Source of the DNA: Escherichia phage AN_ECEAS
Direction: 5' to 3' (one strand)
DNA: 48,081 bases
Sequence record: PP944860.1
Part shown: positions 3,582 to 42,930 of the stretch, one piece after another
Layout of the letters: every line of letters starts with the position of its first letter
Position numbering within the stretch: the stretch's first letter is position 1
Position numbers and translations under genes: made by a program
The notes under the pieces: generated by a model
Told to the model about the DNA's origin: nothing
What the model saw: only the letters and a program-made list of their open reading frames with translations
The model's database searches: none

Positions 3582-4526
3582 ATGGCTATTAAGTTTGACG
3601 CTGAACAAGCGAAAATCACTGCTCACCTAGAGCAGATGGGCGTAGATAAAGCTGACGCCGCTGGCATCTGGACCGTCAAGCAACTGACACAGACCCTGAA
3701 GCGCAACTACGAGCGTGAATATACCGACAACTCTGTTGTTAATATCTTCCCGATCAGTAACGAAATCCCTGCTTCTGCTAAATACTTCGAGTACCCAGAA
3801 TTCGATGGCGTTTCAATCGCTCAGATTATCGCAGACTACTCCGATGACCTGCCGCTTGTTGACGCGTTCATGACTGAGAAACAAGGTAAAGTGTTCCGCT
3901 TCGGTAACGCATTCCTGATCTCCATCGATGAAATCGCAGCTGGTGCAGCAACTGGTCAATCTCTGTCTGCTCGTAAACAGGCTCTGGCTTTTGAAGCTCA
4001 CGACAACCTGCTTGACAAACTGGTATGGTTTGGCTCTGCTCCGCACGGTATTAACAGCGTATTTAATACCCCCAACGCAAGCCGCGTAACCCCGAACGCA
4101 TGGGTTGATGCCGCTGCTGCTGTTAACGATATCACTCGAATGATTGATGCTATCGAAACTAACACGCAGGGTATGCATACTGCTACTGATATCATTCTGC
4201 CAGCCTCCGCTCGCCGCTTGATGCAGCAACTGGTTCCTGGTACTACGATTAGCTATGCTCAGCTGTTCGCAACTAACAATACCAGCGTAAATATTCGCTA
4301 TTTGCAGTTCCTGGACGATATTGATGGCGCTGGCACTAAAGCAGCTCTGGCGTTTGAAAAAGACCCGCTGAACATGAGTATTGAAATTCCTGAGGCAACC
4401 CACGTATTGCCGGGTCAGCCGAAAGATTTGCATTTCAAATACCCTGTTACTTCCAAGTCTACAGGTCTGGTTGTTTACCGACCTCTGACTCTTGCTATCA
4501 TGTCTGGCATCGAAATTACCGCATAA
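3582..4526 (+). CDS. putative major capsid protein
   Basis: 314 aa; strong sigma70-like promoter upstream, RBS AAGGAAG, strong terminator directly downstream; position in head module. Confidence 0.5.
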   Translation: MAIKFDAEQAKITAHLEQMGVDKADAAGIWTVKQLTQTLKRNYEREYTDNSVVNIFPISNEIPASAKYFEYPEFDGVSIAQIIADYSDDLPLVDAFMTEKQGKVFRFGNAFLISIDEIAAGAATGQSLSARKQALAFEAHDNLLDKLVWFGSAPHGINSVFNTPNASRVTPNAWVDAAAAVNDITRMIDAIETNTQGMHTATDIILPASARRLMQQLVPGTTISYAQLFATNNTSVNIRYLQFLDDIDGAGTKAALAFEKDPLNMSIEIPEATHVLPGQPKDLHFKYPVTSKSTGLVVYRPLTLAIMSGIEITA

Positions 4527-18493: not shown

Positions 18494-18507
18494 GGTTACG
18501 CGTAACC
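18494..18507. repeat. 14-bp perfect palindrome GGTTACGCGTAACC adjacent to leftward promoter
   Basis: Self-complementary sequence 2 bp from dyad motif 18474-18492. Confidence 0.6.
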
Positions 18508-18544
18508 GATGTAACTCGATGTATACCATATGCATCCGCGGGAA

Positions 18545-18860
18545 ATCGTATACACCTATTTACGCCTCGATACGCCATAGTTACATTAAAATATCTATAT
18601 ATATCAACCCTTTACTCTTATTATTATTATTATATATATTACTGTGTATATCATGTAACTACTATTCTGTAGTGTTCCGGTTATAATTTTTATATCATGT
18701 GATTTTATACAGTATTGCGAGGCACCCATACCTATGCACCATCCGCCAAGATCGGTATACACGATATACGCACCATTTACATTGAGCTATAGCTGGGCTC
18801 AGGCAGTGAAAAACGTAACCAATAGAAATGTCTACACGTAGTTACGGATTTATACGCGTA
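18545..18860. repeat. control region A: AT-rich (ATT)n block, 10-bp palindrome AGCTATAGCT, conserved CGTAACCAAT and ACGCGTATA boxes; paralogous to region B
   Basis: Blocks 18591-18650 and 18781-18860 align by eye with 38701-38760 and 38891-38970. Confidence 0.7.
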
Positions 18861-18957
18861 TACTTGATTAATTAATCGGTGATACCAATTGGACTGTGTG
18901 TCTTGCGTGCGGCATCATTACATCATCGAAATCACGCAACCAAAGAGAGATAAAGAA

Positions 18958-24395: not shown

Positions 24396-24414
24396 ATAGC
24401 ACGAATTGCTAAAG
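24396..24414 (+). promoter_or_regulatory. dyad-motif element with no + strand gene downstream (lies in leader of the minus-strand tailspike gene)
   Basis: Perfect ATAGCACGAATTGCTAAAG; a degenerate reverse copy at about 24462-24480. Confidence 0.35.
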
Positions 24415-24438
24415 TTGATTGTAGCATCTTTGAGTCAT

Positions 24439-24459
24439 AAAAAAACCTCCCTTAGGAGG
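24439..24459 (-). terminator. rho-independent terminator (minus strand) after primase gene
   Basis: CCTCC-CTTA-GGAGG stem-loop with T7 on minus strand. Confidence 0.6.
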
Positions 24460-25383
24460 TTAGTCTAGCAATTCGCTTGCCTTGTATATTCGCTTTCTTA
24501 TGCCTGACTTGAAAAAATTATCATCATTTGGCATTACCACATCAAGATCGCGATCGTCAGCAACGGCGAGTAAATCAAAAGCGTGGCGAGTGCAAGCGAT
24601 GCGTAACTTGTATTTTCTAAGCGCGTAAGCAACCATTTCCATGTTGTAGCTGGAGTAGCAAACAATCACGCAGCGGTTGCCAGTAGCAAGATGAACGCGA
24701 ATACCATCAATCCAATTATCGACAAGATAAGCGTACTCATCATCTTTAAGGGAGCCAATAACAGACACTGACTGTCGAGTATAATCTTTTGCAGCATAGC
24801 TAACATCTCCTTCCTCATTGATAAACATTACATTGCACATTTCTTCTGATATGCCGTCACTATAAGCCATAAAGCACGGGACAGCATGGATTAATTCACC
24901 TGATTTTGTTCTACCAACATCAAATCCAAACTCGCTATAAATACCCTCGTATGTACTGAGTGGAGTTGATTCTACTCTTTCCGTCCTTTCCATTATCTCC
25001 AGGCATCTTTCGTGGTCAATCTGTGCTCCCATTTTGTAGAGCTGGGCTCTTGATGCTTGCTTGTTTGCCTTGTTAACAACTTCAACCGGGATGAGGTTCA
25101 GCCACTCACCTAGAGTGTCAATACATTCACTGAATGACTCACCCCGCATCTTCATGACCCAAATAATCCCATCACCTGACCCGCACTGGTTGCAGATAAT
25201 CCCACCGTCACCATCCTCACTAACCTTGTTTGTCCAGCGAGCGCGGTCAACTCCTCCACAATAAATACATGGCTTATGCTTTTTTGTCTGGAAGAATTTT
25301 GGGTCTGCGCCGCAAATGTTTATAAGCGCCTTATCCCACAGTCCGCGCATTCTTGGTAAAACTTCTTTCTTGTCGTAGTGCAT
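24460..25383 (-). CDS. putative DNA primase (zinc-ribbon plus TOPRIM-like region)
   Basis: CIYCGG...CNQCG zinc motif; acidic DxD cluster; divergent from helicase gene. Confidence 0.45.
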   Translation of the reverse strand: MHYDKKEVLPRMRGLWDKALINICGADPKFFQTKKHKPCIYCGGVDRARWTNKVSEDGDGGIICNQCGSGDGIIWVMKMRGESFSECIDTLGEWLNLIPVEVVNKANKQASRAQLYKMGAQIDHERCLEIMERTERVESTPLSTYEGIYSEFGFDVGRTKSGELIHAVPCFMAYSDGISEEMCNVMFINEEGDVSYAAKDYTRQSVSVIGSLKDDEYAYLVDNWIDGIRVHLATGNRCVIVCYSSYNMEMVAYALRKYKLRIACTRHAFDLLAVADDRDLDVVMPNDDNFFKSGIRKRIYKASELLD

Positions 25384-25441
25384 ATCAATCTACCTCTTAA
25401 CAAATAAAAAAGGATGTACCGATTATGGCACATCCAATCCT

Positions 25442-25915
25442 TTACTCTTTAGCTTTTCGTGCTGCTTCGTTAGCGGCCTTAATCTTGCGCCATGATCGAC
25501 ACTCTGGCTTGGTGGCTAGCTCTGCTTCAGTAACTACGCGAAGCATATGACGCTTCTTACATCGAAGTGTTAGCGGCTTACCGTTTCCGTCGAATTGCAG
25601 GTCTGGTCGGCAGAACGTAGCTCGAAATCCTTCCTTATTTCTCTTATACGCATTGTGAGCTTTCTGCGCTCCTCGAGCCGAAATCATCCCGCGATCAAAC
25701 CATTGCTCTACAGTCTGGTGAGATACGTTTAACTGCTTTGCGATGTTCGCCTTTGTTCCATAGAAATCAAGAACCATCTCCAGGCGAGCACGTAGCCCAG
25801 CCTTTACCTCATCTTTCAATACGTAGTAGCCTGACGGTCGTTTGCGTTGCTTCTTGTCTTGTGTGCGTACCGTTCCGTTATTGCCGTTAATAGTTCGTTT
25901 GTCAATTTCACACAT
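25442..25915 (-). CDS. HTH DNA-binding protein (candidate transcription regulator)
   Basis: Basic protein with HTH-like segment IAKQLNVSHQTVEQWF; its RBS region abuts dyad motif 25928-25946. Confidence 0.4.
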   Translation of the reverse strand: MCEIDKRTINGNNGTVRTQDKKQRKRPSGYYVLKDEVKAGLRARLEMVLDFYGTKANIAKQLNVSHQTVEQWFDRGMISARGAQKAHNAYKRNKEGFRATFCRPDLQFDGNGKPLTLRCKKRHMLRVVTEAELATKPECRSWRKIKAANEAARKAKE

Positions 25916-25927
25916 CTCATTACCTCA

Positions 25928-25946
25928 ATAGCACTTTTTGTTAAAC
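25928..25946 (+). promoter_or_regulatory. dyad-motif promoter element ATAGCACTTTTTGTTAAAC
   Basis: Upstream of helicase gene; TATTAT-like hexamer ~20 bp downstream; 12 bp from start of divergent HTH gene. Confidence 0.55.
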
Positions 25947-26011
25947 AATAGGTTCGATAATTGATATTATACAGCAATGCAACGAACTAACAAACTGTCA
26001 GGATACTTAAA

Positions 26012-29000
26012 ATGCTTCCAGTAGAGCGCTTAGTGGCAAACTTTGATCAAGAGAAAATCAAACAGATTCAGAAAGATTACCAGTTTGGAGACATAACTCC
26101 TTACGAATTCCAGTGTGTAACATTTGACGCAATTGGTAAGGCTATTGGTAAGTACGAGGCTCCATTCATCGCAGACCTGTCTGTATCTGCTGGTAAAACA
26201 ATAATTCTTGCCATGATTGGGAAAAGAATGGAGCAACTTGGACTTCCTTATATGGTACTGTCTCGCCAGTCAGAGATTATCAGCCAGAACGCAGAGGAAC
26301 TCCGTAACTTCGGTATCCGTAATAGCGTCTATTGCGCTGGACTTAACGTTAAATCAGTTTACTACCCAACCATAGTGGCTAGTGAGGGTACAGCTGCCAA
26401 TGGCCTGTTTAAGGGGCTTGGTGACTATGTTCCTGCTGTTATCGCGATAGATGAGTGCTTAACTGGAGACACGATGATAACCACCGATTCAGGGATGATG
26501 AGGATTGATAGCGAAGACCTTATCAATCATAAAATAAAATGCATAAACGAAAGCACTGGTGATTACTTCTATCATAAGCCAAAAAGAGTTTTTACTAATG
26601 GTGTAAGACATGTATCATCAATTAAATTAGAAAGCGGAGAGGAAATAAAATGCACGAGTACACACAAACTTTATTCGAACGGCTGCTGGGTAGGAGCGGG
26701 AAAACTTCGTATTGGGATGAATCTGTCGCTAGACGGCTCGCAGGACAAATTTACGAAAAAGCTCCTGCGTGCAAGTGTGGCTGTGGTGAAAAAGTTATGC
26801 CGCATTCAAGCAAGGGGTTAGGCGTACTTCTTAAGAACCCTTTCGATTTCTATTTGGATTACAGAACGGGGCATCATAATTCAACCGTCAACCCATCAAT
26901 GGAGGTTGATGACTTTTTACATCAAAACATTCTTGCGGCAATGGCTGGTGATGGTTGCTTGATTAAAAATACAGAAAAAGGAACGCATAGGCTATCTTGG
27001 AATATGGGAAATAAGGAGCACGCACTAAGCAAGGTTGAAAGGTTTGCAAAACTAAACCCTAGATACAGGGAGAAGAAAAACCCTGGATTTGGCGACAACT
27101 GGTTTTGCGTATCAACATCATGTACGAAAGTTCTGGATTCATATGCTGATAAGTACGGAAATTCTAAGGATGGTTACGATATTGGAAAGATATGCAGAGA
27201 GCTTGATCCAGTTGGTTGGGCTGCTTACTTTGGTGATGATGGTCATTGCACTGTAAGCTCAGGGAAGAGGGTTGTAGAAATCCACACCGAATCATTTAGC
27301 AGGCGTGAAGTTCAATCAGTAGTTGATGCGCTAATAGCATTTATTGCTAATGACGGAGTTAATGTTAGAAGCTATATTGGCGGCAAGAAAAAGAGAGAGC
27401 TTTACTCAGTATCAATAACAACGAGGTCGGCACAAGATGAGTTTTTTAAGAGAATTAGTAAGCACATGGAAAATGGCGTGGAATACAAAATCAAGCAAAA
27501 TTAAAGACATCTCACCCATTGGCAAGGAACTTGTTTGGGATATAGAGATGCCTGAGCACCATAATTTCATTGCTGACGGGGTCGTGGCACATAATTGCCA
27601 CATGGTGGACCATATGGATATCGTAGAAGCTGAAGAGAATGAGGAAACATTCGAGCAGATGAGCACGAAGAAGGGTGAGATGGTCTTTAAGGATGGTGTG
27701 AATACCGGGCTTCTTGGCACTGGTCGCGCGCAATACACGTTAATCATTACCGAAATGAAGCGTCGATGCAAGGAGAAGTACGGTCGCGAACTTCGTATCT
27801 TTGGGTTAACTGGTAGCCCGTACCGTAACAACGACCACATTGTAGTTAGTAACCCAAATGTCCGTGGATTCTGGCGCAAAACTGTAATGCAAGTGCCAAC
27901 CAGCTACCTTGTTGACTTGGGGTTCGTTGTTCCTACTGTCTACGGTGAAGTTGGTGATTTGGGCTACGACCTTAGTGAGTTCACTCCTGATGGAAGTGAT
28001 GGGGTTAAGGACTTCAGCAAGAAAGAAATGGATGCGATGGCTGCAAAGATTCACGAAAACCAAACGATGACACAAAAGATAATGGGATTTGCTGCTAGGT
28101 TTATGGAAACAAGGAATGCTGCATTGGTAACTTGCGCTGGCAAACAGCATTGCGAGGAGGCGGCAGCCGCACTTCCAGAAGGTGTTACTTGGGCGATAGT
28201 TACCAACTCCACTGGTGATAAGAAGCGTAGAGAGATACTTGAGAAGGCAGCCAGCGGAGAATATAAGTTCATATTTCAGATTGGTTGCCTCACAACTGGC
28301 GTAAACTGCCCCCCGTGGGATACAAGCATTATCCTGAGGAAGGTTGGTAGCATTACTCTACTCATTCAGTTGCTTGGTCGTGGTATGCGTATCCTTAAGA
28401 AGAAGCACAAAGAAGCTGGAATGGTAAAAGATGACCATGTTGTTCTTGATTTTGCCGGGACGCTTGACGATATGGCAGAACTCTACTTCGACCCAATTAT
28501 AGAAGAGGTTCAGGACCAGAAGTTTAAGTCATCCAGGAAAGGGGGTGATGAACCAAGAATTTGCCCAGCATGTTCTTATGAGAATTCTCCTTTCGCACGG
28601 CGCTGTAATAATGTGATTGACGGTAAACGATGCGAGCATTTTTTTCAGTTCCGTCTTTGCGAAGATATTGAGGACCCGCAGACGAAAGTTATCGTTAAGA
28701 AAGGTTGCGGAGAGAAAAATGACGTTGCAGCAAAGAACTGCCGCTGCTGCGGAGAGATGCTGATAGACCCAAATGCAAAGCTATCTGGAAAAATGTATCG
28801 GAAAGGGGACTGGTTGAGAGTTTATGACTTCAAGATTGGGTTGACAAAAAACCAGTCAGGGATCGTTGCTTCATATGAGGTAATGGCTCATAGTGGAGAT
28901 AAGTTCCGAGCTTATGAAACATTCTTCCCGGAGTCAGACCATCGTGTTTGTTCTGTCAAATGGAAGGCGTTTTGCTCAACTCACATCGAGAACAGGACTG

Positions 29001-29146
29001 AGGCTTTTAGGATTGGCAGATTGCGTAATGCTAAAATGATTATGACAAATGCACATCTTTTCCGTGCGCCGCTAAGGATTACGCACCGCAAGAATCAGAA
29101 GTCGCAAGATATTATCGCCAACAAATCATTTACGATGGAGGATTGA
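26012..29146 (+). CDS. SF2 DNA helicase interrupted by an intein in motif II (exteins 26012-26455 and 27596-29146)
   Basis: Walker A SVSAGKT; DE|CH box restored on splicing; motif VI QLLGRGMR; C-terminal zinc ribbons; reading frame is not continuous through the intein. Confidence 0.7.
26456..27595 (+). mobile_element. intein with LAGLIDADG homing-endonuclease domain (endonuclease domain in a different frame)
   Basis: N-terminal CLTGDT and block B TSTH; C-terminal ...HNFIADGVVAHN followed by Cys; two LAGLIDADG-like motifs ILAAMAGDGCL and WAAYFGDDGHC in ORF 26650..27504. Confidence 0.75.
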
Positions 29147-29147
29147 T

Positions 29148-29567
29148 ATGAAAATCACAGACAAAGGTGATTACCTCGAGTTCTATGGCGGACCGGTGAA
29201 GTCATGCCCAAAGGAAGACGATGAACAAATCTTCTGCTCTGATTGGGTGAAATACAACTATCCGCAGATTGTTTACTGGCACACGATTAACGAAAATAAA
29301 AAGAGCATTGGTCAAGCAATAAAAGACCAAGCCAAGGGGCTTCTCAAAGGTGTGTCAGACTGCTTATTTCTGATACCTGAGTCATTGCGTGGCGGTTATC
29401 CATTTGGCGCCATAGAGTTAAAGAGGGCTGGTAAAACGCAAGCAAGCCCAGTTAGCAATGAGCAAAAGTCATTCCTAAAAAGCGTAAGGGAATCAGGCGG
29501 TTTCGCAGCGGTGGCTTATGGAAGAGAGGGTTTTCTTGCGGCATTCGCAGAGATGATAAGAAAATAG
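29148..29567 (+). CDS. putative VRR-NUC-type nuclease
   Basis: 139 aa with ...GAIELKRAG... motif; coupled to helicase stop. Confidence 0.4.
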   Translation: MKITDKGDYLEFYGGPVKSCPKEDDEQIFCSDWVKYNYPQIVYWHTINENKKSIGQAIKDQAKGLLKGVSDCLFLIPESLRGGYPFGAIELKRAGKTQASPVSNEQKSFLKSVRESGGFAAVAYGREGFLAAFAEMIRK

Positions 29568-29582
29568 CACGAATTGCTAAAG
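29564..29582 (+). promoter_or_regulatory. dyad-motif promoter element ATAGCACGAATTGCTAAAG
   Basis: Overlaps stop of 29148..29567; TATTAT and CATCGAAACG follow; upstream of 29646. Confidence 0.6.
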
Positions 29583-29645
29583 ACGAATTGGTGAGTTGGT
29601 GTATTATCAACTCATCGAAACGAAACAAAGAGAGAGATAAATAAA

Positions 29646-29834
29646 ATGAAAGACATTATTACTAAAGAATCCCAAAGCTACTACGCCTCATACTATGAGA
29701 CAGTTAATGGTTTTAAATTTATTGATATAGAGCAAGGTGGAAACGCCGTTACGCTAACTAGCGAAAAAGATTTAAATGACATGATTTCGTTCTTAGAAAA
29801 AGTGAAAGAGCATTTAAATAGCACGAATTGCTAA
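29646..29834 (+). CDS. hypothetical protein
   Basis: Own dyad-motif promoter; RBS AGAGAGA; C-terminus NSTNC encoded by the next promoter motif. Confidence 0.45.
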   Translation: MKDIITKESQSYYASYYETVNGFKFIDIEQGGNAVTLTSEKDLNDMISFLEKVKEHLNSTNC

Positions 29835-29836
29835 AG
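29818..29836 (+). promoter_or_regulatory. dyad-motif promoter element ATAGCACGAATTGCTAAAG
   Basis: TATAGT 29856-29861, CATCGAAAC with predicted +1 near 29868; motif also encodes NSTNC* of upstream ORF. Confidence 0.6.
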
Positions 29837-29895
29837 AGATTTCGCAGGGACGCGATATAGTTACTCCATCGAAACAAAACGCAGAGAGAAAGAAA

Positions 29896-30084
29896 ATGGC
29901 TACTATCTATACTGGTAAATTCTACGAATCACGCAAGACTGGTTACGAATATGAATTAGTAATTACAGATGACGGTTATGCTCTTGATGATGGTGAAGGA
30001 TACGCATTTGAAGTTAGCCCAACTTACAAATATGATCTGGAAACTGTTAAAAACGAATTCGGCGAAAAATTTGATGAGGTATAA
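29896..30084 (+). CDS. hypothetical protein
   Basis: Own dyad-motif promoter; RBS AGAGAGAAAG. Confidence 0.45.
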   Translation: MATIYTGKFYESRKTGYEYELVITDDGYALDDGEGYAFEVSPTYKYDLETVKNEFGEKFDEV

Positions 30085-30089
30085 GAGTA

Positions 30090-30311
30090 ATGGCAATTTT
30101 AACATTTGACAAACAATGGGAACTATTTCAGGCAATGGGGGTTCAGGAGCTACACAATGCTGGTTATAAAGGTAACTCATGGTTTTTAGCAGGATGCCTT
30201 GATTACAGCTTTGAAGAAGATTACTTGCGAACGGACATCGAAACATGGCGCGAACGCATGGTTGCAGACATTGCGGAAATGAAAAAAGATTGCCCGGAGG
30301 ATTTTGAATAA
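30090..30311 (+). CDS. hypothetical protein
   Basis: ORF in tightly packed operon. Confidence 0.4.
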   Translation: MAILTFDKQWELFQAMGVQELHNAGYKGNSWFLAGCLDYSFEEDYLRTDIETWRERMVADIAEMKKDCPEDFE

Positions 30312-30436
30312 TGAAAATCTTAGATAAGGAGATGTTCGAAATTGCACAGACTTATGCAAATGAAGCAGTTAAAACCGGATCAGAATATTGTTGGATGTGT
30401 GCTAAAGAATATCTGAAAATGGCTTATGACTTATGA
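30311..30436 (+). CDS. hypothetical small protein (41 aa)
   Basis: ATG 30311 with RBS GGAGG; overlaps both neighbours by 1-4 nt. Confidence 0.3.
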   Translation: MKILDKEMFEIAQTYANEAVKTGSEYCWMCAKEYLKMAYDL

Positions 30437-34859: not shown

Positions 34860-35192
34860 TGCAAACAATTCGTCATCACTCATGTTGGCTATGTTCATCA
34901 TCTCACTGACGTAATCACTGGACCTACCTTCAAGGCTCATGAATTCAAACTGAAATGGTCGCTTAATTGAACCCTTACACCAGTACACTCCATTAACTCC
35001 ATCAAGATAACCAGCCGTAAGCATTCTCGCCATAAACTCCTTCGAGCAACTTGAGGCAAAATACCTTTCATCAACCCCGGCAGCCTTGGCCATCCTTGCG
35101 CAATCCTTGTGCTTATAGATGAATCTTGCCAGGTGCTGGCGGTTGAAGTTCTTGTATCCTTCGCAGAAATTATACAGGTCGAGCAGGTACAT
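34857..35192 (-). CDS. hypothetical protein
   Basis: Last gene of leftward operon; convergent terminator shared with spanin. Confidence 0.45.
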   Translation of the reverse strand: MYLLDLYNFCEGYKNFNRQHLARFIYKHKDCARMAKAAGVDERYFASSCSKEFMARMLTAGYLDGVNGVYWCKGSIKRPFQFEFMSLEGRSSDYVSEMMNIANMSDDELFA

Positions 35193-35195
35193 AAA

Positions 35196-36779
35196 TTACC
35201 CCAGCAATCGTGGATTAATGTAAATTTTATCACCAATCAGGCATGTGTAGTTTTTCTCATCAAGCATAGGAATCAAGTGGTCCTTAATGCGAGTCATAAT
35301 TCCAGCCTGAGCTTCAAAAGGTTTAACCTTGCGTGCAGCCTCATACAACGAGCGAACACCAACAACACCTTTACCATTCTTGCCCTGCTTAATCAGGATA
35401 TCAACCAGCTTGTTCATCTCGGCATTGTCACCAGCATGACCAGCAGCACTAGCTGATGACAAATACGTCTTGCTTAGCTCGTTGAAAATCATAACTGCCT
35501 CCTGCATTGTCTCCAGTTCAATCTCTCTGGACTTCTGCGGGCTAGAGCCAGTTTGTGAGGACCAGTTACGAATAACGTGAAGTACGGAAGCGATGCGGAT
35601 TGCTTGCTTATCAAACTTACCAAGAGCACCGCGCAACATTGTGTGAGAATACTTGCCACCATCACCAAGATGAGGCTCCATCTCCTGACGTGCTCGGTTA
35701 AGGTAACGCATTGATGATGCGCTTACTGTTAGCTTAACCTCTACTTCATTCATAATCTCATGAACAAGACGGAAGTAGTCCGCTTTCAGGCCGCCATCAA
35801 TAGCCTCGTATGTTGAATCACCATTAGCATCAACAAATACGCGGTCGCCAAGGAATGACTTTTCGCGCACCAGAAGGAAACGCTCAGATACACCAATACC
35901 ACGCGCACCAGCATTCATAATGGCATTGATTGTTTCATCCTGAGCAATTACGGAGATGCATCCCATAGCCACAAAGCTCATGTTATTTTCTGCGTTCGCA
36001 CGGGCAATTGACACATTACCTGCATCCCATGCTTTCAGCACGAGCTCGCTGTTCGTTTTCTTAGAGCCATTACCATATGTCATACCCAACAATGAGTTGA
36101 CGCTAGTTGCCTCATCCGAGATTACCGAGAAGTTACCCTGGCGGTTGTTGATTCGCGCAAGGCCTTCTGGTGTAGTATCGGAGACAGGGAATACGATATC
36201 GCACAGCTTCTCAAGTTTTTCCTCCAGGTCTTCTTTATCTTCAAACAATGAAGCCATTTCAGAAGGTGATTTCTCCTGCTTCATCTCTTTAGCCAGGGCG
36301 GACAGTTTAGCCATAATCTTTTTTCGATCACGTTTACGTACTTCATTCAACCGCTCAGTCTCAGCAATCATTGGCGCGATTGCCAGTGAGTTAATGGCTG
36401 ACTTACCAGTTGAAGGAGGCTGGCTCGTCACGACATAAAGAGATGTCGGCTGCTGGGTTCCGTGATACTCAACAGTGAAGCGCCCAAGCATTGCAGCGGA
36501 CACGCAGCCCAGAAAGTGCATATAAGCAGATGACTCAGGGAACTGAACTGAGCGAGCGATGTTGGCTGACAGCTTGCCAACAATATCAATGTCATTACCG
36601 AGTGAGATTACTGGATATTTGTCATTCCCAGCATCAATCTCGACAGGTGCTTTCCAGAATGATTGAGACTGGCGATAACCATTTGCATTAATTGCTACGC
36701 GAAGTGGTGGAAGGTTGTCTGTAGCTGCAATTGCCATAACTTGTTCAACAGATAGTTTATCTTCGTTGAAATCAAACAT
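35196..36779 (-). CDS. P-loop NTPase of unknown function
   Basis: 527 aa with Walker-A-like PPSTGKSA; own dyad-motif promoter. Confidence 0.45.
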   Translation of the reverse strand: MFDFNEDKLSVEQVMAIAATDNLPPLRVAINANGYRQSQSFWKAPVEIDAGNDKYPVISLGNDIDIVGKLSANIARSVQFPESSAYMHFLGCVSAAMLGRFTVEYHGTQQPTSLYVVTSQPPSTGKSAINSLAIAPMIAETERLNEVRKRDRKKIMAKLSALAKEMKQEKSPSEMASLFEDKEDLEEKLEKLCDIVFPVSDTTPEGLARINNRQGNFSVISDEATSVNSLLGMTYGNGSKKTNSELVLKAWDAGNVSIARANAENNMSFVAMGCISVIAQDETINAIMNAGARGIGVSERFLLVREKSFLGDRVFVDANGDSTYEAIDGGLKADYFRLVHEIMNEVEVKLTVSASSMRYLNRARQEMEPHLGDGGKYSHTMLRGALGKFDKQAIRIASVLHVIRNWSSQTGSSPQKSREIELETMQEAVMIFNELSKTYLSSASAAGHAGDNAEMNKLVDILIKQGKNGKGVVGVRSLYEAARKVKPFEAQAGIMTRIKDHLIPMLDEKNYTCLIGDKIYINPRLLG

Positions 36780-38664: not shown

Positions 38665-38975
38665 AATCATACACGCCTACCACGCGAGATTACGCAATGG
38701 TTACATAATAATATCTATATATATCAACCTTTTACTATATTATTATTATTATTATATATATGTATGTATATGGTGTAGATTGGTCGTATGGATGGGTCGA
38801 TAGTTTTTCTATGAAAACTACTAATTTTATCTATATAGATACATATGCATACCCCCGGCGAATCCGCGTAAAATCTTACACAGGGTAATTACACCAGCTA
38901 TAGCTGGGCTGAGAGGTCAAAAAGCGTAACCAATGCAGATATAAACACAACATAACACTTGATAACGCGTATATT
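38665..38975. repeat. control region B: paralogue of region A
   Basis: Shares AT-rich (ATT)n block, palindrome CCAGCTATAGCTGG (38894-38907), AAAGCGTAACCAATG and AACGCGTATA boxes. Confidence 0.7.
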
Positions 38976-39028
38976 CATGATACCATGGTTTCATCTTAAC
39001 GAAGAGCAACCAATCAGGAGTAACGAAT

Positions 39029-39550
39029 ATGTCAGAACATAAAGAAGCAGTAAGTTTGGGTGAAATCATTCGATACATGGCGAGTCAGGCGCTCAAGTCA
39101 GAAGACAAAGTGTGCACAGTCCCTGTGACCATGATTGCTCGTCAATACTTCGGCATGAGTCGTGAGACGTTCGTATCGCTAAGTGGTGAGGAGGTTCTAC
39201 CTGGTGGTGAATACCACATGCCAAAACTAAAAGCGTCATACGTTTCAAACACCGTAAGCCGAATGCCTGAGATTAAGGCGGCTGACGTGCGCTCAAGGTT
39301 CTCACTTAGTTTTACCGACTTTGAGGGCGAGAGTGAGACATACTGCGCATCACTTAGCCTGGTTCCTGGCGCTGTAAAATCCGGCTCAAGAAGCAAAGCA
39401 GAGCAAGAGAAGGAGGCGGCTACCATTGAAAGGTTCAAGGCTCGATTGTTGAAACTATCACCAAGCGTCGCTGGTCTTGAAGGTGATGAACTTAAGGGTG
39501 CAGTATCAATGATTAACGCATACCAGGAAATGATTAAGGAGACTAAATAG
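39029..39550 (+). CDS. hypothetical early protein (first gene right of control region B)
   Basis: ATG 39029 with RBS AGGAG. Confidence 0.5.
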   Translation: MSEHKEAVSLGEIIRYMASQALKSEDKVCTVPVTMIARQYFGMSRETFVSLSGEEVLPGGEYHMPKLKASYVSNTVSRMPEIKAADVRSRFSLSFTDFEGESETYCASLSLVPGAVKSGSRSKAEQEKEAATIERFKARLLKLSPSVAGLEGDELKGAVSMINAYQEMIKETK

Positions 39551-40162: not shown

Positions 40163-40181
40163 ATAGCACAAATTGTTAAAC
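40163..40181 (+). promoter_or_regulatory. dyad-motif promoter element ATAGCACAAATTGTTAAAC
   Basis: TATAGT ~20 bp downstream; upstream of 40239. Confidence 0.55.
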
Positions 40182-40238
40182 CTTCCGCAAGGCCATTTGA
40201 TATAGTGGCCTTATTAAAGCAAAGCAAGAGAGGGTGGG

Positions 40239-42606: not shown

Positions 42607-42708
42607 ATGAATGATATTATTATTGATTTAGTGTTAACTTTGATTGCTGTTGTTCTTGCTATTGCTACAGGTGCAGGGATGCTTTTACTTGTAATGAGAC
42701 TTTCTTAA
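42607..42708 (+). CDS. possible 33-aa hydrophobic peptide
   Basis: Single TM-like segment; speculative. Confidence 0.2.
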   Translation: MNDIIIDLVLTLIAVVLAIATGAGMLLLVMRLS

Positions 42709-42738
42709 TGGATGTTGATAAGAACAGGAGCCATATGT

Positions 42739-42930
42739 ATGAATGAAAACGACAATAACCACAAGCATCGCTACGTTTACGTGTTCACATCAAATATTAA
42801 CGATTTTGACATTAAAGCGCTAAACGACAAGTACCATGAGTCAACAAAACAAAGTCTATTTGTTGGTGAAAGCTGTTCATTCTACGAGTGCAAAGATTGT
42901 GGCAAGATGCTTATAACTGAGGAGTTTTGA
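42739..42930 (+). CDS. hypothetical protein with C-terminal Cys cluster
   Basis: ATG 42739 with RBS AGGAG. Confidence 0.4.
   Translation: MNENDNNHKHRYVYVFTSNINDFDIKALNDKYHESTKQSLFVGESCSFYECKDCGKMLITEEF

Follow-up and report, generated by a model that had tools for sequence, protein, structure and literature searches.

Phages of the Drexlerviridae, the family of the T1-like phages, carry a 22-bp repeat with the consensus VWATAGCAYKWWTTGYTAAAAV or aaATAGCACnnnTTGnTAAAA in 16-21 copies per genome, which are intergenic, oriented with transcription and placed ~76 nt before start codons. Twenty copies were reported in T1 (Roberts 2004, as cited in the Stevie paper, PMC4319613), 16 in Stevie (PMC4319613) and 21 in TLS, where A, T and G subtypes were described (PMC11447400). 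The role of the repeat was called unknown, with a stoperator, an enhancer site or a UP element as suggestions, and an analogy to the stoperators of L5 was proposed (PMC4319613, PMC11447400). In a separate line of work, T1 Orf23 was renamed Pir (Laganenka et al. 2019, mBio, PMC6737242). In GFP reporters, plasmid-borne T1 Pir activated Phol and Pdam and repressed Ppir and PrecE; Ppir was also repressed by Orf65 and cAMP-CRP, and Porf65 was independent of Pir and activated by Orf65 instead (PMC6737242). The Pir paper defines no operator and makes no mention of the repeat, and the helicase promoter is not among its reporters. The TLS paper does not mention Pir, and the searchable texts of the repeat papers do not state a fixed spacing to a -10, a missing -35, a universal copy between pir and helicase or a link to Pir. 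Our literature search found no later paper joining the repeat and Pir.

Here, we describe a locus where the two meet. It lies in a stretch of 48,081 nucleotides from Escherichia phage AN_ECEAS (PP944860.1), referred to as the window. Positions 24400-30000 match Escherichia phage ES (OR466728; Drexlerviridae, Braunvirinae) at 100% identity and many T1-like phages at ~80%. The window is not a simple rotation of OR466728, as the coordinate offsets differ by part (-4360, +43646). The ES record lacks an annotation for pir, leaves 29743-30372 empty and evidently has scrambled product names (e.g., 'minor tail protein' on pieces of the helicase). The genes and sites of the locus are listed in Table 1. 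The primase gene is followed by the HTH gene, which is divergent from the helicase gene, and this gene order is the same in relatives. The T1 pir locus is similarly placed between primase and helicase, with a T-type copy of the repeat 13 nt from the ATG and a shared -10. Unlike the window, T1 has a second regulator, Orf65. The absence of an Orf65 homolog from the window, Rogue1 and KPN N141 led us to reject this protein as a universal reader of the repeat.

Table 1. Features of the pir/helicase locus, of further sites in the window and of the T1 reporter fragments. Positions are those of the window unless T1 is named.
Feature	Position	Strand	Remarks
Primase gene	24460..25383	-	Tail-spike gene also on the minus strand near the locus
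HTH gene (pir ortholog), 157 aa	25442..25915	-	ATG 25915-25913; list of open reading frames
Helicase gene	26012..29146	+	ATG 26012; driven by predicted P_hel; followed by a VRR-NUC nuclease gene on the plus strand
Intein-like insert in the helicase gene, ~1.1 kb	~26459-27562		With LAGLIDADG ORF
Insert, piece 1	end of ORF 26012..26821		N-terminal Hint/intein splicing segment, then stop
Insert, piece 2	ORF 26650..27504		LAGLIDADG endonuclease, different frame
Insert, piece 3	beginning of ORF 27437..29146		C-terminal intein segment
Intrinsic terminator 3' of pir	25412..25435	-	Loop holds CATAAT -10 (25427..25422) of the primase promoter
Degenerate box CAGCACGAAAAGCTA for the primase promoter	25464..25450	-	Within the 3' end of pir; CATAAT at canonical distance
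T-type copy of the 22-bp repeat (box), AATAGCACTTTTTGTTAAAC	25927..25946	+	Sequence match to consensus
RBS GAGG of the HTH (pir) gene	25923..25926	-	2 nt from the box core; conserved as tTGAGGt / tGAGGg
P_hel extended -10 (TGaTATTAT)	25962..25970	+	TG 25962-25963, TATTAT 25965-25970; promoter scan
Predicted rightward start	25977 (±~1 nt)	+	Aligned to the conserved cCATCGAAAC start region of other box promoters
P_pir -10, TATAAT	25966..25971	-	Scan; overlaps the rightward -10 in 5/6 bp
P_pir -35, TTGTTA	25988..25993	-	Scan; 16-bp spacer
Perfect dyad without its own promoter, TAGCACGAATTGCTA	24397-24411		~+1..+15 of the leftward tail-spike promoter
Tail-spike promoter, extended -10 TGcTACAAT	24426..24418	-	Just before ATG 24372
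Sigma-70-type promoter with true -35	18893-18930		TTGGAC-18-CATCAT
T1 PrecE promoter with true -35	T1 30310-30360		TTGACT-17-TATAAT
Pdam fragment	T1 38824-39041		Co-oriented T-type box promoter; Pir activates
Ppir fragment	T1 36589..36409		Sigma-70 TTGAAT-17-TATAAT and reversed T-type box in leader; Pir represses
Porf65 fragment	T1 4335-4435		Starts 9 nt before a perfect G-type box; Pir-independent
PrecE fragment	T1 30178-30394		TTGACT-17-TATAAT, no box; Pir represses
Phol fragment	T1 42678-42899		Left half of the box only; Pir activates

Two features of the neighbouring genes stand apart from the regulatory question. The helicase gene is interrupted by an insert flanked by pieces of the helicase in a kept frame (residues 4-154 of the Rogue1 helicase correspond to 26009-26458, and residues 143-647 to 27563-29131). 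Its appearance is that of a split ('fractured') intein accompanied by a free-standing homing endonuclease, or else of a frameshifted intein. On the other side of pir, a terminator and a promoter are combined in one module ahead of the primase gene, and the same combined arrangement is found in Stevie at 26438.

The HTH protein is an ortholog of T1 Pir (54% identity, E 2e-48). It matches PHROG 2856 'transcriptional regulator' (E 8e-84), and Pfam yields weak matches to the P22_Cro and YdaS HTH families. In the AlphaFold model (pLDDT 88.5), residues 1-29 are predicted to form a disordered N-terminal arm and about residues 35-93 an all-alpha Cro/XRE HTH core, which is followed by a small C-terminal module. 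An earlier reading, made from the sequence only, had called a minus-strand HTH gene here, and the open reading frame together with Pfam, PHROG and AlphaFold bears this out. In fold searches, the core matched Xfaso-1 Cro, P22 Cro, N15 Cro and controller proteins of restriction-modification (R-M) systems, and searches for the N-terminal arm and the C-terminal module matched nothing beyond this Cro/XRE core. Across 78 homologs with 47-97% identity, the invariant or nearly invariant parts are the basic arm (DKRTxNGNNGTxRGxDKKxRK), the motif RGMIS and the C-terminal GFRAxFCRPDLxFDxNGKPL..RC. The surface of HTH helix 3 is variable (SHQTVEQW, TPQAVEEW, SIQVVQQW, TTKVVTGW, CCVRLTNAY).

The motif that the sequence-only reading had pointed out, 25928-25946 (ATAGCACTTTTTGTTAAAC), is part of a T-type copy of the Drexlerviridae repeat, hereafter the box. 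Its core, TAGCActtttTGtTA, is found at 25929-25943 (centre 25936), 12-13 nt from the HTH ATG. The motif does point towards the helicase gene, with 68 nt between the end of the dyad and the helicase ATG, and the gap of 12 bp to the HTH start codon is exact for the motif as it was then bounded (25916-25927). As for the dyad that had been described, its arms are present, but in this copy they are imperfect: TAGCA (25929-25933) and TGTTA (25939-25943) are complementary at 4/5 positions across a 5-nt spacer. As the RBS of the HTH gene abuts the motif, the HTH promoter must lie beyond it and the leader must cross it.

The motif is not confined to this locus and is the upstream element of a genome-wide promoter family. 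With up to three mismatches, the motif has 8 matches in the window, where 0.03 are expected. The core TAGCACNNNNNGNTAA has 24 matches with up to one mismatch (3.2 expected), a number that none of 100 shuffled sequences reached. About 17 copies of the published repeat aaATAGCACnnnTTGnTAAAA, including the one at the locus, are found in the window, mostly intergenic and co-oriented with the gene that follows. Ten other copies contain the perfect dyad TAGCA-N5-TGCTA. From the end of the dyad to the start codon, copies ahead of a co-oriented gene span 55-68 nt, after four gene starts had been corrected by hand against the list of open reading frames and the box sequences.

Our description of this family draws on 105 oriented copies, taken from the window and five other genomes (T1, Rogue1, Klebsiella phage KPN N141, Citrobacter phage Stevie and Vibrio phage Vc1). 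The rebuilt consensus is aAATAGCACtttTTGcTAAAac-N16-tGgTAtaaT-N5-cAtcgaaa. The best match to a -10 starts 23 nt past the core in 72 of the 105 copies and 22-24 nt past it in 88, and the conserved start region cAtcgaaa follows 6-7 nt past the -10. A G is found at -14 in 84/105 copies (80%), and TG at -15/-14 in 44/105 (42%). The best TTGACA matches at a spacing of 16-18 bp to the -10 were distributed as at random positions in these 105 copies, so we conclude that box promoters have no -35. The fixed distance from box to -10, the frequent G at -14 and the lack of a -35 indicate that the box copies are promoters with the box centre near -41. Judging by this pattern, each member of the family lacks a -35 and combines a 20-22-bp box, a conserved start region and, at a fixed distance, a good -10 that is often extended; the box occupies approximately -52 to -30 of these predicted promoters in T1-like phages. 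Furthermore, spacer and arm are coupled: the T-type spacer (CTTTT) goes with TGTTA in 30/49 copies and the G-type spacer (CGAAT) with TGCTA in 26/33. The site thus seems to come in two distinct versions and not to vary freely.

Several known elements that resemble parts of the box were considered and rejected. TTGCTA does not serve as a -35, because the spacer to the -10 would be 22 nt. The sigma-54 consensus is TGGCAC-N5-TTGCW, with its GG and GC elements 12 nt apart and no -10; the look-alike in the box, TAGCAC-N4-TTGC, has AG instead of GG and a spacing of 10 instead of 12, and is followed by a fixed -10. IHF sites, the lambda CII site (TTGC-N6-TTGC) and the T4 MotA box, compared by eye as consensus sequences, do not fit in spacing or position.

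The sequences around the box promoters show further regularities. The 38 nt past the box fold more stably than shuffled sequences (-10.2 vs -4.6 kcal/mol; n=105; Wilcoxon p=4e-16). Pairing is lower at the -10 itself, so that a GC-rich inverted repeat usually straddles the -10 hexamer (e.g., AAGGCCAtttgatatagTGGCCTT, GAGTTGgtgtattatCAACTC); examples in the window are 29580-29620 and 40179-40215. This inverted repeat might serve to terminate or process read-through RNA, or it might form a cruciform. The perfect dyad at the start of the tail-spike promoter lacks a promoter of its own, and T1 has the same layout, TGaTAAAAT followed by a dyad at 34903. This dyad may serve as an operator for the tail-fibre gene. 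The start region CATCGAAA(T/C) is common to the box promoters and to two promoters that bear a -35, one at 18893-18930 of the window and T1 PrecE (Table 1). Two classes of promoter thus differ in their upstream halves and agree in -10 and start context. The window at 18500-18900 is AT-rich and non-coding, with ATATAT runs and several short repeats of the GTAAC/GTTAC type. It resembles the 530-bp region upstream of T1 recE (29850-30378; repeated GTGTAACAG, GTTACAA) and might serve as a replication origin or hold an array of regulator sites.

At the pir/helicase locus, the box faces two divergent promoters that are predicted to overlap. Rightwards, P_hel would be an extended -10 promoter, as its TGn precedes a TATAAT-like hexamer that begins 22 nt after the box core, where 23 is the mode of the family. 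An independent scan also returned P_hel as TAAACA-17-TATTAT with TG, TAAACA being a 4/6 match to a -35. Alignment to the start region of other box promoters places the rightward start near 25977, and relative to this predicted start the box centre (25936) lies at -41; sites of class II activators lie near -41.5. Leftwards, TTGTTA-16-TATAAT (25993..25966) is the best minus-strand sigma-70 match in the region (10/12). With a leftward start predicted near 25959, the box would be located at about +17..+31 of the HTH transcript. As the -10 hexamers of the two promoters have 5/6 bp in common, RNA polymerase could occupy only one orientation at a time. The sequence-only reading had proposed that a protein at the dyad would activate rightward transcription and occlude the promoter or leader of the HTH gene. 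The position of the box near -41 of the rightward promoter and inside the HTH leader agrees with this, but the motif does not overlap the HTH promoter, and the common -10 hexamers would offer a more direct route to occlusion. The interpretation of that reading is partly supported: its logic is largely right and agrees with the published reporter data on the ortholog, and its details need correcting.

This layout is conserved. The box is next to the HTH gene also in T1, Rogue1, KPN N141, Stevie and Vc1. In an alignment of the Ppir regions of 14 phages, the order is leftward -35, leftward -10, box and RBS, and the box is the sole conserved element besides the other three. The leftward -10 in these phages is TATAAT, TACAAT or TATCAT, and the equivalents of the P_pir -35 include TTGAAT (T1), TTGACT (Stevie) and TTGTCA (KPN N141). 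We also drew 55 distinct upstream regions from 80 IMG/VR loci that encode an HTH homolog, and 54 of the 55 show the same arrangement, always with a T-type box. A juxtaposition retained across so many upstream sequences is not due to chance. The exact G-type box has at least 120 matches in IMG/VR; among the matches listed, all are on contigs of up to ~53 kb, which fits Drexlerviridae genomes or fragments. Protein and profile searches found homologs of the HTH protein only on Drexlerviridae-type contigs of 45-53 kb, the sole exception being one weak partial match in a Pantoea myophage. As these searches, among the matches listed, placed both box and Pir on contigs of the family's type, their co-occurrence is not separable from shared ancestry.

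To relate the box to the published activity of Pir, we mapped the reporter primers onto the T1 sequence (Table 1). Two of the three reporters that bear a box respond to Pir as the geometry predicts, and both boxes are T-type; the G-type box does not respond. For the T1 ortholog, repression of Ppir and activation of Pdam have thus been demonstrated in the literature, so the behaviour of this circuit is on record, and the locus in the window is one more ordinary ortholog of it. The autoregulation that the sequence-only reading had suggested for the HTH gene is therefore probably right, though not new. What we add is an explicit promoter architecture and the proposal that Pir is linked to the T-type box.

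We consider it somewhat more probable than the alternatives together that the box is the upstream recognition element of the helicase promoter, back-to-back with the sigma-70 promoter of pir, and that the pair forms a switch driven by Pir. Early in infection, host polymerase alone would fire leftwards and Pir would be made. Pir would then act at the box, recruiting or stabilising the rightward polymerase in the manner of a class II activator. The same event would shut off pir, because the shared -10 would be occluded and Pir would occupy +17..+31 of the pir leader. That Pir binds the box directly and that it activates P_hel is what we infer, together with the transcription start positions. Some observations count against such a switch. 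The perfect G-type box promoter T1 Porf65 is Pir-independent, and 42% of boxes precede a TGn extended -10 that is perhaps active without an activator. Pir also changes two reporters without a full box, the box-less PrecE and the half-box Phol, so its effects could be on RNA polymerase and not on the box. Our confidence is not higher mainly because helix 3 varies and the box does not: Vc1 has a quite different helix 3 and the same box. Such a pattern speaks against a recognition helix that simply reads the box, and covariation of helix and box was accordingly dropped as a line of support. If Pir reads the box, it would do so largely via the invariant N-terminal arm or C-terminal module.

A broader form of the Pir-driven switch can be offered only tentatively, and we regard it as rather less probable than its negation. 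The repeat would be a Pir-responsive element that defines a class of middle promoters in all T1-like phages, with T-type boxes read by Pir and G-type boxes independent of it. The copy between pir and helicase, always T-type, would then make a minimal toggle: a single bound regulator would turn RNA polymerase from one orientation to the other on the shared -10. T-type boxes, with their CTTTTTG spacer, would be the targets of Pir, perhaps by way of its invariant basic N-terminal arm in the narrow minor groove.

An unlikely alternative, and the one that survives best, is that Pir targets RNA polymerase, like AsiA/MotA of T4, disabling promoters with a -35 and favouring those without one, the class with a box or an extended -10. 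The box would then be read by the polymerase or another factor, and autoregulation would not need the dyad in the leader. Both T1 promoters that are repressed by Pir indeed bear a -35 (TTGAAT-17-TATAAT and TTGACT-17-TATAAT), one of them, PrecE, without a box, and box promoters lack a -35. The conservation of Pir in its N-terminal arm and C-terminal module, and not in the recognition helix, points the same way. However, Porf65, with a box and without a -35, should be favoured by such a mechanism, yet it was reported to be Pir-independent. The central domain of Pir is modelled as a classical DNA-binding fold of the Cro/XRE type, and an invariant 20-bp box needs a sequence-specific reader.

It is also quite unlikely that the box is a negative element, i.e., a stoperator, a roadblock or a repressor operator that shuts off constitutive extended -10 promoters and silences helicase and pir. 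This would agree with the orientation of the copies with transcription, the frequent G at -14, the promoter-less perfect dyad at about +1 of the leftward tail-spike promoter in both the window and T1, and the reversed copy in the pir leader, which coincides with repression. Against this, the fixed distance of 22-24 nt to the -10 and the lack of a -35 mark promoter elements and not elongation blocks, T1 Pdam is a typical box promoter that Pir activates, and 58% of copies have neither TG nor a -35 and would be weak unaided. Stoperators of the L5 type are asymmetric repressor sites that block elongation within transcribed regions and bear no fixed relation to promoter elements; this type was rejected, as 88/105 copies lie 22-24 nt upstream of a -10, which places them upstream of starts. 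Where a copy is reversed, in the leaders of pir and of the tail-spike gene, it could nevertheless act as a roadblock.

Little credence can be given to a host protein, e.g., Lrp or another nucleoid-associated or global regulator, as the factor that binds the box; the box would then stand next to the HTH gene simply because the helicase promoter lies there. Phages of Escherichia, Klebsiella, Citrobacter and Vibrio share an invariant box and differ in the HTH helix, as expected for a host factor. The box also matches the Lrp consensus (yAGhAwATTwTdCTr; PMC5554404) at 11-13 of 15 positions, with the same arms and spacing. However, matches to Lrp at 12 or more of 15 positions are at chance level, with 85 in the window against ~101 expected, and a host Lrp site was therefore rejected. 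In addition, the invariant C at position 6 and the flanks aAA and TAAAAc are absent from the Lrp consensus, and the exact G-type box was found, among the matches listed, only on contigs of Drexlerviridae size or smaller. Pir alone alters the box reporters in uninfected E. coli (PMC6737242), which also speaks against a host protein. Finally, an effect at the level of RNA, in which the motif, present as its reverse complement in the 5' leader of pir, folds into a structure that controls translation or stability, is highly improbable even though the motif abuts the RBS, as the leader folds at -3.5 kcal/mol (z = +0.86; 165/200 shuffles fold at least as well) and the same box is found upstream of starts at ~100 other promoters.

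The Pir-driven switch, if correct, has counterparts in well-studied phages. Like the lambda OR region with PRM, PR and cI, it would use one regulator with a Cro/cI-type DNA-binding fold on two divergent promoters, with a site near -42 that activates one and represses the other, and with autoregulation of the regulator gene. It differs in having a single site instead of three operators and overlapping -10 hexamers that make polymerase occupancy mutually exclusive. Moreover, the regulator's own gene is on the repressed side, and the phage is virulent. The box promoters also resemble the middle promoters of T4 (MotA/AsiA) and the Mor and C promoters of Mu, which have no -35, a good or extended -10 and a conserved upstream box recognised by a phage activator whose gene has an early promoter of the host type. 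Unlike the MotA box, which is centred at -30, the box described here lies near -41, and MotA and Mor have different folds. We know of no AsiA-like partner in T1-like phages. With respect to the R-M controller (C) proteins, C operators differ from the box in sequence and sit upstream of the C gene's own promoter, whereas the box is used genome-wide and Pir has an additional N-terminal arm and C-terminal module.

T1-like phages occur widely and find therapeutic use, and laboratories know them as notorious contaminants. To our knowledge, their transcription programme is essentially undescribed. For twenty years the repeat has been reported with its 'role unknown', and Pir has been a regulator without an operator, as two disconnected observations. 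A promoter box without a -35, a T-type copy at the Pir promoter in 54/55 loci and a box in Pir-responsive reporters join them into one testable model of the early-to-middle switch. The shared -10 arrangement would also be a very compact natural bidirectional switch, which could serve as a part for synthetic biology.
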